Shown here: positions 3,873 to 29,690 of the stretch, piece after piece
Layout: the number at the start of each line of letters is the position of its first letter
How positions within the stretch are numbered: position 1 is the stretch's first letter
Made by a program: the position numbers and the translations under genes
Notes under the pieces: model-generated
Databases searched by the model: none
What the model saw: the letters and a program-made list of their open reading frames with translations, nothing else
What the model was told of the DNA's origin: nothing
Virus record (IMG/VR): IMGVR_UViG_2778261425_000003
DNA from: a virus
Taxonomy: Duplodnaviria > Heunggongvirae > Uroviricota > Caudoviricetes
Length of the DNA: 47,028 nucleotides
Strand: one strand, 5' to 3'

Positions 3873-4100
3873 TTGTACTCCTCATGGGTAATCAGCAGTC
3901 CTCAGAGTAATGGAATGGCAGAAAGATTCGTGAAAACGATGAAGGAAGACTACATCGCGTTCATGCCGAAACCGAATGTAAGAACGGCATTGCATAATCT
4001 TGCAGTGGCGATCGAACATTACAATGAAAACCATCCGCACAGTGCGTTGGGTTATCGCTCTCCGCGAGAATATCGACGTCAGCGGGTAACGTTAACTTAA
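3873..4100 (+). pseudogene. IS3-family (IS2-like) transposase C-terminal fragment
   Basis: 75-aa ORF ending ...[30 protein letters not shown]; only the last part of a transposase, no upstream catalytic region or inverted repeat. Confidence 0.6.
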
Positions 4101-4141: not shown

Positions 4142-4885
4142 TCAGATTCCCTGGTGAGTAAGAATTTTACTTTCTGAACTCCTCTGAGAGTATTGACTTG
4201 GAGAAACACCAAAATAACGTCTAAATACATAAGTAAAGTATGAGACACTGGCATAACCACAGACCTTAGCTACTTTACTAATAGGATAACAACGAGTGCT
4301 GAGTAAATATTCAGCCATTTGCATCCTCTCATCAAGTATGATCTTACTGAATGATATCCCCTCTTCTTTCAATTTCCTCTTTAGTAAACTTTCGCTGAGA
4401 TATAATCTTGATGATATATCCTTAAGACGCCATGGTGCAGATAAATCCGTATGAATAATCGTTTTAACTTTAGCCCCTGTGCTTTTCAAACATCCAAACA
4501 GAAATACTCCAAATTGTTTTTCAGAAGAAAATGCAGAGAGACATGTAAAAGCAATAGACTCATCAAAAATTTCTATGTATTCAGCACAGTGATTAGCCCA
4601 ACTAATTAATCCTTTAATTAAACTGAAGTTAGCAAAGTTTATTTTTAAATAAGATGGATATTCCCTACAATCAGAAATATCCCTTAAGTTATTAGCTTTC
4701 AAATAGCGACTAATAAACTCAGCGCCAAAATCCGCCACTATCACTCTTTCAGGATATGTCAGGAAAAAATCTCTAGAGCTAGAGTCGACAAGTACAGATG
4801 AACCTCTCTCCAGAAACACACTTTCTTTTCCGAAATAAATATCAAAGGACTCCAAAATCAATATAACTGAACATGTAGTTGCCAT
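4142..4885 (-). CDS. AraC/XylS-family transcriptional regulator (YdeO/AppY/GadX-like), low-GC cargo gene
   Basis: C-terminal double HTH (..SESLLKRKLKEEGISFSKIILDERMQMAEYLL...CGYASVSYFTYVFRRYFGVSP); ATG 4885 with GGTGG RBS, in-frame ATG also at 4894. Confidence 0.75.
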   Translation of the reverse strand: MATTCSVILILESFDIYFGKESVFLERGSSVLVDSSSRDFFLTYPERVIVADFGAEFISRYLKANNLRDISDCREYPSYLKINFANFSLIKGLISWANHCAEYIEIFDESIAFTCLSAFSSEKQFGVFLFGCLKSTGAKVKTIIHTDLSAPWRLKDISSRLYLSESLLKRKLKEEGISFSKIILDERMQMAEYLLSTRCYPISKVAKVCGYASVSYFTYVFRRYFGVSPSQYSQRSSESKILTHQGI

Positions 4886-8552: not shown

Positions 8553-9331
8553 TATGCTGCTCTCACGATATAGTTAAATGCAATGTTTCTTGGTCTGTTC
8601 TCTGAGGCAGTTGGCACTACTCTTGAAGCATCAAAATTGACTAAATGAGGATTGTTTGGGGTATTTGGAATGATTGTGGTGTTACCTATCGTATTACGAA
8701 GTGCTGATTGACTTACAAAAACACCACTCGCTGTATTAAAGCTAATAGCCGCATTAGCTTCGGTTTGTCCATTACCAAATGTGCCGGTTATATTACGAAT
8801 AGCATCCCCCTGAGCAGACAGAATTTCGCGCCCCGCGTCAATACCGCGCCCGTCATCCCAACCACGAATAAACTCACCACGTAAATCAGGCAATTTATTT
8901 GTTGGATAAGCCTTTGCCAGTTCCGGGTATTCTTCAGCAGAAAAAACCGCACCATTGCATTTCAGCCAGCCTGTTGGCGGAGTGGCGGAAGGCCACGGAA
9001 CAGGGACACCAACAGGTAATGCAGAGCCTTCTCCCAAACCAAGGTTTTCGAGAGCCGTTTTCACCGTGCCGTCCGATTTGATATCACCAAACGGATTCTT
9101 GCGGCTTAACAGCAGCGCACGAAGCGCGGTAAGCAGCTGGTCGTGCCGCGCCTTCTCGAGACTGGCACCGGATGCCTCCACAACGCTGCAAAGCTCCTCC
9201 TGCAACATGTCAAAGTAGTCATCATCCAGATCGGTGGCAGGCGTGCCAGTCTGGGGGTTACCACGGGTAAAACCGTTCTTACCCGCGCCGAACTTATCCT
9301 TCTGCGCGGTTTTCGTGTCTATACGATGCAT
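8552..9331 (-). CDS. tail fibre protein (constant N-terminus plus variable C-terminus in the current orientation)
   Basis: 259 aa; crossover site falls at about codon 97; position after the baseplate genes. Confidence 0.7.
9029..9054. repeat. gix/pix-like invertase crossover site (right), inside the tail-fibre gene
   Basis: TTCTCCCAAACCAAGGTTTTCGAGAG in inverted orientation relative to 7153-7178. Confidence 0.7.
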
Positions 9332-24577: not shown

Positions 24578-26311
24578 TTAAAGCGAGCGGATCCCGTAGG
24601 ACTCAATGTGATCAGACAGCGTGTCTTCTTTCTCGTACAGCATGGCTCTGCCAACCGCCATAATCAGCGCAACTGCACCGTCAATTTTGTTTTCCGCCTG
24701 CTCTTTGACGGGTTTCACCACATCATCGTTACCCGGCATGTTTTTGCCGACCACGTTGCCGATACACCAGGTCATGATGGGATTGCCGTCATGATGAAAA
24801 CGTCCCGATTCAATCGCTGCTTCCAGCTCTTTCATCGGATCGGACATATTGGTGAAGTTCTGGAAGATAGTGACGGGATTCAGGTCTTCATCAGCAAGGT
24901 CATGTGACAGCCCGGTCGCCCCGAAGGGGTCGATGGGTGACTCGCTGACCGGGCTGATTTTGTTCGCCGCTTTGGCCTCTTCGAGGATGTAGCGATAATC
25001 CACCTCTGCACCATCGGTAACGGTCAGGACGCCCATTTCCACCCATTTCTGAAAGCGTTCGGCTGTCCGGCGATCTTCATTTTTCTCGACGCTGTACACC
25101 GTGTCATACGGTACCCAGAAACGCGGGGCCACACTGTAGTAATGCGTTTTACCGTCAATCTCGCGGGTATAAAGTCGCGCCATGCTGTTCATATCCAGTT
25201 TACGCGCCAGGTCAAAGGCCAGAATGCACGGCTGCCCCTCGAATTGCTCAAGAGTCAGTGATTTATCCTCGCAGCTCTGCCAGCTCACCAGGTTGAAATA
25301 CGCCGAACGCGCCGACACCCAGATATTGAGGTGTTTTGTTTTAAAGACGTTTGCCAGACGGGCGTTATTTTTCGCACGCTGTTGCTGACTTAACAAAAAC
25401 TCACGGTAAACCGACACCCCGATATTCGGGTTGGCTTTTTCCAGCACCTGTGGGTTGGTCCAGTCGTCACCTTCGTCAACGGTATAGATGATCCCGAACA
25501 GTTCATCGTTGGGTACCGAACCGTTGAGCATCTCGATAACTTCCCGCCGTTTGTCGTAGCACGGCCCCTCAATGTTGTACCCGGCAGTAGTAATGGCCCA
25601 CATCAGTGGCTGACGTCGCGCCCCCATCCCGGTAAGCATCGTGGTGTAAAGCGCATCGGTGGCGTGCTCGTGATATTCATCCACCACAGCACAGTGGGGT
25701 GATGAACCATCACCGGGGTTACCGATCAGCGGTTCAAACCGCGCGCCATCCTCCGGACGGTTCATGTTTGAGGCGTTAACCTCAATCCCGAACGCTTCCG
25801 TCAGCATGGGTGTGCGTTTACACATCAGTCGCGCCGGGCGAAAGACTTCCCACGCCTGTTTCTCCGTCGTGGCACCGGAATACACTTCCGCGCCAAACTC
25901 GTTATCACAGGCAAAACAATACAGGGCGACACCGGCAGAGATTGCCGATTTGCCGTTCTTACGGGGGATTTCGGTATACACCTCCCGGAAGCGGCGCAGC
26001 CGGGTACCTTTATTGACCCAGCCAAACGCACAGCAGATCACAAAGAGCTGCCACGGCTCCAGCGTGATGGGCATCCTCTTGAATGCCCACTCCCCCTTGG
26101 TGTGTGGCAACAGCTGAATAAATTTCGCGGCCCGTTCAGCCAGGTCCTTGTCGAAGCGGTAACGAAACGACTTACTTTTTTCCGCCATCAGGTCATCAAG
26201 ATGGCGCTGGCAGGCCTGAATCACAAACTGGCAGGCCACAATCTTTCCGCGCACGACATCACGGGCATACTGATTGGCAGCATTTACGTTGGGGTAAGAT
26301 TTCCGGCTCAT
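24578..26311 (-). CDS. terminase large subunit
   Basis: 577 aa; ATPase region with DEYHEH acidic motif, C-terminal nuclease; coupled to small subunit. Confidence 0.85.
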
Positions 26312-26811
26312 GATTCGATGATTTTCAGAAACGGGTTAGTGGCTTTCTTCTGCCCCGCCAGGCCAATCAGACGCTGGCGGCTGCTGGGGTCGAGTCCGAG
26401 CATTGCCCCCGTGCTGCTCATCTCGGACTCCTGTTCTTTCTTGGCGGTCAGCTCCGGATTTTTGACCATGCCACCCATTGCACCGGTGATGGTGTTGCCC
26501 TGTCTGGCAATATTTTTCACGGCACGCCGCCAGAACTCGTAGGCCACGCACCACCGCTCAAGCACCGCGAGGTCAGTCACGCACAGCAGGCCCTGACCGC
26601 AGAGTTCTTTGGTTGTCAGTTGCCACATGATCGTGGCGAGAGGGAGATCTTCTTCAGCGAACCACTCCGGTGGCTCAACACCTTTGATGGGCGTAAAAAC
26701 AGGTTCATCTTTATTCAGGGCTCGCTTGCCGGGGTTTCCGGCCAGCGCCTTGCGCGCCGTTGGCTTGGGGCGACGCCCGGAACGCCCCGCCGTTCCAGCC
26801 ATATGCGGCAC
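26308..26811 (-). CDS. terminase small subunit (P27 family)
   Basis: 167 aa, basic N-terminus; directly upstream of the large subunit. Confidence 0.7.
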
Positions 26812-26927: not shown

Positions 26928-27278
26928 TCAATTTAACCGTTCACGGGCCGTCTTCGCCTTATGACACGGCCAGCACAGACTCTGCAGATTACTGTCAGCA
27001 TCAGTGCCGCCATGCGCTTTAGGGATGATGTGGTCAACAGTTTTCGCCTCACGCACCACACCAGCACGCAGACATAACTGACACAGGCCTTTGTCACGCT
27101 TCAGGACACGCGCGCGGATACTGTCCCACTTCGAACCGTAGCCGCGCTGATGACGGGATTGTCCTGGTTTGTATTGCTTCCAGCCTTCGCTTTTGTGGCT
27201 TTCGCAGTAGCCTGACGGGTCTGTGGTTGTAGAGCGGCAGCCGCGAACACGGCAGGCTTTTGGGGTTCGAGGGGGCAT
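26928..27278 (-). CDS. HNH endonuclease (packaging-associated)
   Basis: 116 aa with CxxC...HIIPKAHGGTDADSNLQSLCWPCH HNH motif; position before terminase typical of HK97-like cos phages. Confidence 0.8.
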   Translation of the reverse strand: MPPRTPKACRVRGCRSTTTDPSGYCESHKSEGWKQYKPGQSRHQRGYGSKWDSIRARVLKRDKGLCQLCLRAGVVREAKTVDHIIPKAHGGTDADSNLQSLCWPCHKAKTARERLN

Positions 27279-27385
27279 TATTAATGTCCTAAATAGTTTC
27301 CTCTCTAAAAACTAATTTGTGTTAGGGAAATCATTAAATGAAGTGAACCTTTTAGTACCCACTGTAAAATTCACTTCATTAATAT

Positions 27386-27895
27386 TTAACCAAATACAAT
27401 GAATGTTCCAAAAGATGCTAATGATATATTTATCAGAGAATCCATACGAGCCTTAATTTCTGGCGTATCCTCGACCTCAGTACGCCATTGATTGACTGCC
27501 TCAATCATATCTCGACAAAACACATCTATTTGCAACTGAAGTTTGCCATTTAAGTGATTTAAATGCACTTGGCAATTTGGCCTAGGTGGTGGTGTAAAAT
27601 TAAACTGCATCATTCTTTTCCTGTTCTCTGGATCCTGTCCAGCATGTAAACAAGAACAACGATACAGCCAAAAATCATCCGCATAAAATCGACACTGTTC
27701 ATGTGTACCGGATGTATATTTATTTTCAAGATAACGAGAAACCCAATCTTTATACCATTTCCCTGTTTCACCCTTACCTATTTTGGGACGTTCAACGCTC
27801 CTGCAAATATCAGGCATAGCAAGAGCCATAAACAATGCCGCTAACCAATTCTCACTTTCAATTGAAGATTCAATTGATTTTATAAACCTTTCCAT
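27386..27895 (-). CDS. hypothetical Cys/His-rich protein, low-GC cargo between lysis and packaging modules
   Basis: 169-aa ORF, GC visibly lower than flanks; CRFYADDFWLYRCSCLHAG and CQVHLNHL suggest possible metal binding. Confidence 0.6.
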   Translation of the reverse strand: MERFIKSIESSIESENWLAALFMALAMPDICRSVERPKIGKGETGKWYKDWVSRYLENKYTSGTHEQCRFYADDFWLYRCSCLHAGQDPENRKRMMQFNFTPPPRPNCQVHLNHLNGKLQLQIDVFCRDMIEAVNQWRTEVEDTPEIKARMDSLINISLASFGTFIVFG

Positions 27896-27961
27896 AACTC
27901 ACCTTTATATTATTTGATGATTATATTTATAGCACAGTTACAATCATTTTCAGGAAAATAT

Positions 27962-28213
27962 TTATTCATTTTGATATCCTATTTTTAGAATATCCTTTTT
28001 ATCTCTATTGCATTGCGCTAATGCAGATAACAAACTCGCATTCAGTTCCAGGCTAGCACCATATGTCAGTGGACTAGGTACAACTGGAATCGGTGTTTCA
28101 GAAGTCAGGCTGGCTGGCAGTGGTACCGCCGGAGTGTTCACGTAAACTGTCCGCGTACTTCCGCAACCGGTCAGCAGCGGCAGCAGGCACAGGACGTGAA
28201 GCACAATCATCAT
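27962..28213 (-). CDS. Rz1: o-spanin (Rz1-type outer-membrane lipoprotein), embedded in the Rz gene
   Basis: Lipobox LLTGC after a hydrophobic leader, Pro-rich; out-of-frame overlap with Rz. Confidence 0.7.
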   Translation of the reverse strand: MMIVLHVLCLLPLLTGCGSTRTVYVNTPAVPLPASLTSETPIPVVPSPLTYGASLELNASLLSALAQCNRDKKDILKIGYQNE

Positions 28214-28490
28214 CCGCAACAGCCACTTTGATATCTTCCTGGGTTCTCTGTGACTCCAGTGCAATCTGCTGTTTTGCATGCTGGTTAGCCTCTATAACTG
28301 TATTGATGATTTGCAGTGATTGCAGAACGTTACGGGTAATGGCAGTTGCTGATTCAGCATTTCGTATAGCCTCATCAACACGCTCCTTTTCGTGCAGATA
28401 TTTGCTGTAGTAATGCCCGGCAGACCAGATGAAGGAACCAATGACGGTAACAAAGAAGGCAACAATAACCAGCTTATATCTCAGCTTCAT
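28098..28490 (-). CDS. Rz: i-spanin (Rz)
   Basis: 130 aa, N-terminal TM then coiled coil; follows endolysin. Confidence 0.8.
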   Translation of the reverse strand: MKLRYKLVIVAFFVTVIGSFIWSAGHYYSKYLHEKERVDEAIRNAESATAITRNVLQSLQIINTVIEANQHAKQQIALESQRTQEDIKVAVADDDCASRPVPAAAADRLRKYADSLREHSGGTTASQPDF

Positions 28491-28950
28491 TTACCACCCC
28501 ACCAGCTTCTTTAAATCGGGAAATCAGGTCACCGATTCTATGTTCATACTGACCGTAACCAGCCCCCGGCAACGAAGCCCAGATATTGCTGCAACGGTCG
28601 ATTGCCTGACGAATATCACCGCGGTCAATCATCGGTAAAGCGCCACGCTCTTTAATCTGCTGCAATGCCACAGCGTCCTGGCTTTTCGGAGAGAAGTCTT
28701 TCAGGCCAAGCTGCTTACGATAGGCATCCCACCAACGGGAAAGAAGCTGGTAACGTCCGGCTGCTGTTGATTTGAGTTTGGGGTTTAGCGTGACAAGTTT
28801 GCGAGGGTGATCGGAGTAATCAGTGAATAGCTCTCCGCCAACAATGACGTCATAACCATGATTTCTGGTTTTCTGCCGTCCGTTATCAGTTCCCTCTGAC
28901 CACGCCAGCATATCGAGGAACGCCTTACGTTGATTATTGATTACCACCAT
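28474..28950 (-). CDS. R: endolysin, lambda R-type lytic transglycosylase
   Basis: 158 aa [39 protein letters not shown]..., close to recalled lambda R. Confidence 0.9.
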
Positions 28951-29257
28951 CTTCTACTCCGGCTTTTTTAGCAGCGAAGCGTTTGATAAGCGAACCAATC
29001 GAGTCAGTACCGATGTAGCCGATGAACACGCTCGTTATATAAGCGAGATTGCTACTTAGTCCGGCGAAGTCGAGAAGGTCACGAATGAACCAGGCGATAA
29101 TGGCGCACATCGTTGCGTCGATTACTGTTTTTGTAAACGCACCGCCATTATATCTGCCGCGAAGGTACGCCATTGCAAACGCAAGGATTGCCCCGATGCC
29201 TTGTTCCTTTGCCGCGAGAATGGCGGCTAACAGGTCATGTTTTTCTGGCATCTTCAT
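28934..29257 (-). CDS. S: holin, lambda S-type with dual start (MKM)
   Basis: 107 aa [31 protein letters not shown]..., three TM segments. Confidence 0.9.
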
Positions 29258-29376
29258 GTCTTACCCCCAATAAGGGGATTTGCTCTATTTAATTAGGAAT
29301 AAGGTCGATTACTGATAGAACAAATCCAGGCTACTGTGTTTAGTAATCAGATTTGTTCGTGACCGATATGCACTGG

Positions 29377-29412
29377 CAAAACGGCATGAGGTTGTTAGCG
29401 CAACCTCCTGCC
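29377..29412 (-). terminator. tR'-like intrinsic terminator about 200 nt downstream of pR'
   Basis: Minus-strand hairpin GGCAGGAGGTTG/CAACCTCATGCC followed by GTTTT. Confidence 0.55.
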
Positions 29413-29548
29413 ACCCGATTTCACGAAGCCAGCCATTGAGCTGGTTTTCTTTTATGCAAAGCACACCGCACCGTAGCCACAGCGGATAAGGTGATTATTT
29501 TGGTCTGTCTGGTATTTGGTTTGATGTGCTTTCAGAAAGGCCGTGCTT

Positions 29549-29583
29549 AAAACGCAAAAAGCCCCGAGCTATTAACTCAGGGC
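29549..29583 (-). terminator. promoter-proximal hairpin with U-tract in the late leader
   Basis: Minus-strand GCCCUGAG/CUCGGGGC stem with 7-nt loop followed by UUUUUGCGUUUU, about 30-60 nt after the pR' start. Confidence 0.45.
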
Positions 29584-29611
29584 TTTATTTAACGAGTGCA
29601 TTTATCCATCG

Positions 29612-29650
29612 TTGAGTCAAATTTACCCAACTTTATTCAAAAAGTCAATA
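29612..29650 (-). promoter_or_regulatory. late promoter pR' (TTGACT, 17-nt spacer, TAAATT) with qut region
   Basis: Minus-strand TTGACTttttgaataaagttgggTAAATTtgactcaacgatgg directly downstream of Q. Confidence 0.7.
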
Positions 29651-29690
29651 TCATGCCGTTAATATGTTGCCATCCGTGGCAATCATGCTG

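Follow-up and report, generated by a model that had tools for sequence, protein, structure and literature searches.

A low-GC moron-type cassette between the lysis and packaging genes of an SfII/HK97-like prophage encodes a small protein with a predicted HEPN-like fold

What is the function of a small gene of deviant base composition wedged between the lysis and the packaging genes of a prophage? This question is raised by the virus record IMGVR_UViG_2778261425_000003 (Caudoviricetes), a stretch of 47,028 nt that is referred to as the window throughout. On its minus strand, between Rz/Rz1 and the HNH endonuclease and terminase genes, lies an open reading frame (ORF) of 169 codons starting with ATG (Table 1). 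An initial annotation made from the sequence alone had delimited this ORF, recognised no family for its product, and considered it a candidate lysogenic-conversion gene with possible metal-binding Cys/His clusters. Reanalysis confirmed the location and the exact coordinates of the ORF. As set out below, the gene belongs to a rare, mobile cassette, its product represents a large family of proteins annotated only as hypothetical in which a single Arg and a single His are invariant, and a role as a HEPN-like RNase in prophage-encoded defence is tentatively proposed.

The ORF stands out by its guanine-plus-cytosine (GC) content of 0.375, compared to 0.567 for the HNH gene, 0.595 for the small terminase gene terS and 0.495 for the whole window, in agreement with the low GC noticed initially. 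A 1.6-kb query spanning the junction was compared with 5426 complete E. coli genomes. The junction was matched in 1269 genomes and the ORF in only 19 of these, and a sensitive search with the ORF alone returned the same 19 genomes, all copies being chromosomal and 99.2-100% identical. Identity across the whole 1.6-kb junction falls to 95.7%, and the higher conservation of the ORF copies suggests a cassette that has been spreading recently. About seven of the 19 genomes are from mouse-derived isolates (8178, DEF2, DEF10, FEA3, 3-72) carrying identical cassettes, implying that independent acquisitions are fewer than 19.

Where the junction is empty, 26 bp separate the HNH start from the lysC stop. 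Alternative cargo at the same junction comprises a DUF2513 protein together with a 64-aa ORF, a GrlR-like protein, an unrelated 168-aa protein (strain QDFD216) or two opposite-strand ORFs, and several further insert sizes occur. The 168-aa protein of QDFD216 was considered as a divergent homologue and rejected on comparison. The replaced segment extends from just past the HNH start codon (27279) to approximately 27980-28090. Within the Rz1 frame, the 3' part (27962-28090), amounting to the last 15-40 codons or so, is low in GC. It is part of the variable island and lies outside the conserved lysis cassette, because homology to other E. coli prophages sets in again only at about 27980-28090, and the Rz1 C-terminus thus seems to have been exchanged along with the cargo. 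The presence/absence pattern and the foreign GC content, together with the promoter-like element and terminator-like structures described next, substantiate the earlier view of the gene as accessory cargo at a variable moron junction. Conservation as a lysis or packaging accessory in all relatives, which the initial annotation had named as one finding that would contradict this view, was looked for, and the distribution clearly shows that the gene has no such status.

An independent promoter in the gap 27896-27961 had been suggested as a point to check. The upstream sequences (120 nt each) of the window gene and of its homologues in Serratia, Citrobacter, Escherichia sp., phage ECP1 and two metagenomic contigs, seven loci in total, were compared in an alignment; the proteins of the loci other than the window share 46-78% identity with the window protein. 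The sequence TGCTATAA, located about 30 nt before the ATG (window position 27934-27927), is invariant in all seven loci and falls within a conserved promoter-like element of the extended -10 type, while the sequence farther upstream is unrelated in several of them. A generic promoter scanner reported no promoter in the same gap; it demands a T in the final -10 position, which is why the extended -10 escaped it. Canonical terminators with a GC-rich stem and a U-tract follow the gene in four of five orthologous loci (Citrobacter, Escherichia sp., contig L029 and ECP1), and in the window the 66-nt predicted promoter and untranslated region on one side of the ORF is mirrored by a 107-nt hairpin region on the other. 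This set of predicted elements matches the classical description of a moron as a promoter-gene-terminator cassette, and suggests that the gene may be expressed in lysogens from its own predicted promoter.

A related arrangement was observed in a Citrobacter youngae contig (L025), where the palindrome GGCATTCACTGAGTGCC, missing from the window copy, overlaps the -35 in the promoter-like region (~4530-4600). This region is repeated near-verbatim (~3930-4000) after the terminator of the gene and before the next cargo gene (DUF6979), suggesting tandem morons with a common type of promoter or operator.

Thousands of homologues, a start codon that is aligned family-wide and a good Shine-Dalgarno sequence identify the ORF, by sequence criteria, as a genuine gene and not a chance frame. 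Its product of 19.8 kDa (isoelectric point 6.4; six Cys, 3.6%; four His, 2.4%) corresponds to the RefSeq protein WP_016236634.1 from an E. coli locus that is 99.9% identical across the 1.6-kb junction. PHROG 18591, a family of unknown function, was the sole library match (E 1e-73), and Pfam, NCBIfam and PADLOC v2.0.0 gave none; direct assignment to a characterised family thus failed. An exhaustive profile search returned 2857 clusters at 50% identity with E<=1e-3, 1746 of them with E<=1e-10, and a word-indexed search returned 1430 clusters at 90% identity. Among the 120 clusters listed, no Pfam domain was found, all were named 'hypothetical', and nearly all were 160-200 aa long. Members occur in temperate phages, plasmids and defence or toxin-antitoxin (TA) islands of Proteobacteria, Firmicutes, Actinobacteria, Fusobacteria, Bacteroidota and Melainabacteria. 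A search of the literature with the protein accession yielded nothing specific, and no description of the family was found in the libraries and papers searched.

Ten longer members were scanned for additional domains. One of them (P0090, 328 aa) is fused to C-terminal TPR repeats, and the extensions of the others contain no Pfam domain, including the N-terminal extensions of about 75-140 residues in P0041/P0088 (~325 aa) and at L007 3776-4492. Such fused regions could be sensor modules and hint at triggers.

Conservation was scored over 156 diverse members and over a second set of 132 members. Only the columns of R79 and H84 are invariant (156/156 and 132/132). Among the 156 members, N16-W17 and W137 are near-invariant, P28-D29 is conserved, and H111 is retained in 151. 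Position 80 is a Cys in 148 members, including the window protein, and an Asn in the remaining eight; C31 is present in 147 (Ala in eight) and C127 in 137 (A, V, G, S or T in the rest). At position 33, about 40% of the members have K or R. Both Cys/His-rich peptides highlighted by the initial annotation, CRFYADDFWLYRCSCLHAG (residues 68-86) and CQVHLNHL (residues 108-115), are present in the window protein, but most of their Cys and His residues are not conserved, and C68, C82, C108, H65 and H114 all vary within the family. The substitutions of C31, C80 and C127 are independent of one another, which renders a Cys/His zinc site unlikely and speaks against the suggested metal binding. Replacement of a Cys by Ala, Val or Ser is reminiscent of a small residue in a buried position, and the Cys/Asn alternation behind the Arg agrees with the HEPN consensus R-[NDH]-x3-H. 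The R-x4-H motif is typical of metal-independent HEPN RNases.

AlphaFold2 modelling gave the same topology with a 17-sequence input (pLDDT, the predicted score of the local distance difference test, 85.4) and a 132-sequence input (pLDDT 93.5, predicted template modelling score 0.88). The model is a soluble helical bundle, in which helices 2-13 and 17-35 are followed by a helical insert (44-61, with helices 44-55 and 57-61) and by helix 72-83, H84 being the first loop position after this third helix. A short helix (89-95) leads to a three-stranded sheet (98-101, 113-115, 118-122) carrying H111, and the model ends with a long helix (123-141) and a short one (145-152). The hydrophobic C-terminus noted earlier is there (ASFGTFIVFG), but it is short and poorly conserved or missing in the wider family, and the best 19-residue Kyte-Doolittle mean, reached only in this tail, is 1.39 and thus below the transmembrane threshold. 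No signal peptide, lipobox or transmembrane segment was detected in the protein, whose N-terminus is hydrophilic and helical.

HEPN domains are defined by five features, including a four-helix up-down bundle built from two alpha-hairpins, an insert between helices 2 and 3, a polar residue (N/D/H) after the Arg, and an acidic residue in helix 2, often within E-x3-[KR], near the motif (PMC3710099). Four of the five are found here. The model shows the four-helix up-down bundle, the insert between helices 2 and 3 corresponds to residues 36-71 with indels in the family alignment, the invariant R79 and H84 are placed at the end of predicted helix 3, and D29 in predicted helix 17-35 would supply the acidic residue; the polar-residue rule is obeyed only by the eight members with Arg-Asn. 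HEPN matches outnumbered and outranked DinB-like matches. We therefore regard a HEPN-superfamily fold with an R-x4-H active site as reasonably probable, as judged from the model and the invariant residues. The profile and structure searches recommended for this protein were run, and the only family recovered by profile for the window protein was the PHROG of unknown function. Profiles of 17 and 132 members matched PDB sequences only by chance (a metalloendopeptidase and an E2 enzyme, E ~1), and Foldseek against BFVD retrieved family members only.

The genomic contexts of the family are diverse. Enterobacterial orthologues (60-78% identity) are always in sense orientation in the interval from the last lysis gene to terS, in prophages whose lysis and packaging modules vary (HNH with P27 terS; Nu1/GpA; Terminase_2/3 with Phage_portal_3; others), and the copy of phage ECP1 is likewise located after the lysis genes. 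Elsewhere, distant members adjoin the integrase gene (Arthrobacter Bridgettevirus phages, on the strand opposite the tail genes; Acinetobacter phage TCUAN1) or an integrase-family recombinase (SPbeta-like prophages), lie directly 3' of a CI-like repressor with helix-turn-helix (HTH) and S24 domains on the same strand (a 46-kb phage contig), or follow the holin beside an ImmA/HTH immunity region (Cetobacterium). Plasmid-borne members were found behind a tail-fibre gene in B. cereus and beside a HipA TA module in Sulfitobacter. Chromosomal members lie in regions rich in genes of TA and defence type, with SNF2, SIR2_2, Phd, BrnA and ParE in one case and an AAA_15/21 ATPase and a DEAD/nSTAND3 helicase in another. 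Every locus carries a single copy without tandem paralogues, and no recurrent neighbour or partner gene emerged across the ~20 loci inspected. The 43 phage records matched are mainly from Arthrobacter phages (integrase-carrying in the locus inspected), lambdoid phages and SPbeta-type phages, and no recognisably virulent phage stood out among them.

The ECP1 homologue is encoded at positions 8614-9057 of record KY979108.1 (L004 4001-4444), with 46% identity over 93% coverage. The record has no annotated gene in this stretch, which separates the lysis genes from the annotated genes that come next, so that the homologue was apparently overlooked in gene calling.

By analogy with the prophage-encoded HEPN RNases HepS and Tha, and considering the genomic contexts of family members, we tentatively propose that the ORF is a moron cassette encoding a stand-alone HEPN-like RNase for abortive-infection defence, an explanation we hold to be quite possible, if short of probable. 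In the lysogen, the protein would be produced under its own extended -10 promoter and, given the sense orientation of the gene, also from the late operon. It would form a homo-oligomer in which the R79/H84 motifs of two protomers build a metal-independent RNase site that is kept inactive until a product of an infecting phage activates it. Cleavage of tRNA, mRNA or rRNA, leaving 2',3'-cyclic phosphate ends, would then arrest translation and abort the infection, with sensor and effector residing in one polypeptide, as in HepS. A wider and less probable reading is that the whole family represents a new, minimal single-gene abortive-infection system, a HEPN RNase with an R-C-x3-H site and a beta-sheet insert bearing a second conserved His that would combine sensing of a phage product with RNA cleavage, spread as a cassette into the lysis-terminase junction of lambdoid prophages as well as into integrase or immunity regions of temperate phages from Actinobacteria, Firmicutes and other phyla. 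It is more speculative still that the Cys trio around the predicted active site (C31, C80, C127) acts as a thiol/redox switch on the nuclease.

Several observations weigh against this proposal. The residue after the Arg is a Cys in the window protein and not the usual N, D or H. Pfam and NCBIfam scans of the 132 members one by one at E<=1 produced scattered noise (E>=5e-4) and no HEPN family, the 132-member profile matched none of the solved HEPN chains at E<=10, Foldseek against PDB returned nothing significant, and the window protein has no PADLOC match. The other cargo of the junction has no PADLOC match either, Pfam recognising only DUF2513 and GrlR, so that the contents of this hotspot give no support to a defence function; nothing specific was found in the literature on the junction as a defence hotspot. 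A constitutive RNase without an antitoxin would need tight autoinhibition. Finally, as the gene is always sense-oriented in the enterobacterial late operon, a role in the lytic cycle fits equally well.

The last point leads to the main rival explanation, in which the product is a late-gene RNase or anti-defence factor for the carrier phage, degrading host or competitor RNA or inactivating an RNA part of a host defence system. It draws on the same fold and motif evidence, and in all enterobacterial loci examined the lysis-to-packaging location in sense orientation means that Q-antiterminated late transcription must read through the gene. However, a conserved independent promoter-like element and terminators are unnecessary for a purely late gene, members reside on plasmids and in non-phage chromosomal regions rich in TA and defence genes, and other members are found on the lysogenic strand 3' of a CI-like repressor or, in Arthrobacter phages, opposite the structural genes beside integrases; also, no recognisably virulent phage stood out among the 43 records. 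We consider this alternative unlikely. A module stabilising the prophage by addiction, composed of the protein as toxin and an unrecognised antitoxin (a small protein or an RNA), appears improbable: HEPN RNases are common as TA toxins (HepT/MNT, RnlA/RnlB), some members lie beside TA genes, and small ORFs (61-90 aa) are frequent ahead of the gene in orthologous loci, but no neighbour is conserved across the ~20 loci and there is no MNT-type partner. Moreover, the 66-nt and 107-nt flanks in the window gave no Rfam match and contain no tandem repeats, which makes a module resembling type III TA systems unlikely.

The conserved Cys and His residues allow a different kind of protein to be envisaged, a small regulator or adaptor without nuclease activity in which C31, C80, H84 and C127, with or without H111, from three helices chelate a metal such as zinc. 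There is only a slight chance of this, because each Cys is lost on its own to a non-ligand, or, for C80, to the Asn that is canonical in HEPN proteins, and H84 is invariantly paired with an Arg, which is not a ligand. The preponderance of HEPN over DinB-like matches and the lack of any zinc-finger or metal-binding family in the library scans argue in the same direction. A lysis or packaging accessory protein would be suggested by nothing but the position between Rz1 and HNH/terS; absence from ~98.5% of the junction-matching E. coli genomes and occurrence alongside lysis and packaging modules of several unrelated types, and also outside phages, make it extremely improbable. The defence-associated HEPN-like RNase remains our favoured, if tentative, explanation for the gene.

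Table 1. Coordinates of the ORF, its predicted motifs and expression signals, and the surrounding genes in the window
Feature	Position	Strand	Basis or remark
ORF, predicted stand-alone HEPN-like protein	27386..27895	-	PHROG 18591 family; RefSeq WP_016236634.1
R79-C-S-C-L-H84 codons, R-x4-H motif	27644..27661	-	invariant R79/H84, end of predicted helix 3
D29 codon, P-D-I-C motif, predicted helix 2	27809..27811	-	155/156 members; candidate HEPN acidic residue
Shine-Dalgarno AAGGTGA, 3 nt before ATG	27899..27905	-	conserved in orthologous loci
TGCTATAAA, extended -10 promoter-like element (TGnTATAAA)	27926..27934	-	comparative alignment, 7 loci
Overlapping alternative -10 TATAAT	27925-27920	-	sequence
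Possible -35 CTGAAA, 16-nt spacer to extended -10	27953-27948	-	starts 8 nt past Rz1 stop codon
AT-rich 44-nt hairpin just past stop codon, then UUUAAUGAUUU; weak terminator-like, weak U-tract	27337..27380	-	folding z-scores -2.3 to -2.9
Variable low-GC island (GC 0.338), HNH start codon to body of Rz1	27279..27995	.	absent or other cargo in other E. coli prophages
Holin	28934-29257		upstream in direction of transcription
Endolysin	28474-28950		upstream
Rz	28098-28490		upstream
Rz1 frame	27962-28279		upstream
HNH endonuclease	26928-27278		downstream
P27-family terS	26308-26811		downstream
terL	24578-26311		downstream, followed by portal gene

The names of the neighbouring genes were taken from the E. 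coli prophage with 99.9% identity across the 1.6-kb junction. By sequence, the carrier is an SfII/HK97-like prophage, with 96-97% identity to the SfII/SfI/SfIV type over 61-78% of a 24-kb stretch. A second likely cargo hotspot lies between the Q antiterminator and the holin (window ~29258-29690). Strain UTAK-10, which shares 99.9% identity with the window across the 1.6-kb junction, has three extra opposite-strand genes in this interval (L001 6673-9065), encoding two 'nucleoid-associated proteins' and a 404-aa hypothetical protein, where the window has only ~430 bp. Another relative (L002) carries an 'SDH family Clp fold serine proteinase' at the same site.

If the defence function is confirmed, a large 'hypothetical' family missing from PADLOC v2.0.0 and Pfam would become recognisable as a defence or toxin family, and a second solo HEPN sensor-effector, unrelated in sequence to HepS, would be at hand. 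The Rz-terS junction of lambdoid prophages would then be worth mining, the other cargo there being equally uncharacterised. The assignment would add a new family within a known kind, the HEPN RNases in phage defence, and would not surprise specialists in kind; its distinctive traits would be the Cys after the catalytic Arg, the beta-sheet insert with a second conserved His, the very small size and the recurrent insertion at the lysis-terminase junction. Since the protein is small and encoded by a single gene, the hypothesis is cheap to test.

Regarding its genetic organisation, the cassette resembles the morons of lambdoid phages, such as those reportedly described in HK97 and HK022 by Juhala and Hendrix in 2000, in that it adds a gene close to the end of the late region and has a deviating GC content, its own promoter- and terminator-like elements and presence/absence polymorphism among otherwise similar phages. 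The bor and lom genes of lambda, the precedent invoked by the initial annotation, encode a lipoprotein and an outer-membrane protein, respectively. The ORF product, lacking the targeting and membrane segments searched for, is not of this type and is instead predicted to be cytoplasmic, helical and nuclease-like.

Among HEPN proteins, the MNT-associated toxins (HepT/DUF86, HI0074, AF0298; PMC3710099) differ from the ORF product, which has no MNT partner and no match to Pfam PF05168/DUF86, and which contains an extra 38-residue insert between helices 3 and 4 with the predicted three-stranded sheet and H111. Weak matches to DzbB of the Dazbog system (PADLOC PDLC03836) were obtained for nine of the 132 members (E 0.001-0.07, best E 0.0012). 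The two that were mapped cover about 31 residues around the helix-3 motif D-C-Y-A-L-R-C-x-x-L-H-x-G, at positions 286-322 of the 341 in the DzbB profile. The eight Arg-Asn members had been suspected as the source of these matches, wrongly, as the matches belong to other clades and are confined to the motif. The window protein itself has no DzbB match, and DzbB is about twice as long. DzbB works with DzbA, a DUF262/ParB-like protein (Millman et al. 2022, preprint 10.1101/2022.05.11.491447), and HEPN domains are known to associate with ParB/DUF262; no DUF262 neighbour was seen in the window or in any inspected locus carrying Pfam marks. The likeness to DzbB is thus at the level of the sequence motif only.

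The closest functional parallels are offered by two prophage-encoded systems. HepS ('HEPN Solo', STM14_3211) of the Salmonella prophage Gifsy-1 is a constitutively made solo tetramer (PMC13043305, PDB 9oik) that the tail-tip protein (J) of an infecting siphovirus opens, whereupon it cleaves tRNAs in their anticodon loops (PMC13043305). Like HepS, the ORF is a stand-alone prophage gene without a conserved partner in the ~20 loci. Unlike the ORF product (169 aa, R79-C-x3-H84), HepS has 218 aa and an R100-N-x3-H105 motif; no sequence relationship between them was detected with the 132-member profile at E<=10, and HepS occupies the replication/antirepressor region and not the Rz-terS junction. Whereas the trigger, the tetramer and the tRNA targets of HepS have been demonstrated, their counterparts for the ORF product are suggested by analogy only. 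Tha, encoded by S. aureus prophages, is a HEPN RNase that is expressed in lysogens and is triggered by a tail protein of a foreign phage, resulting in growth arrest (PMC11087260). The ORF product would, under our proposal, resemble Tha as a prophage-encoded HEPN RNase that is activated by the infecting phage.

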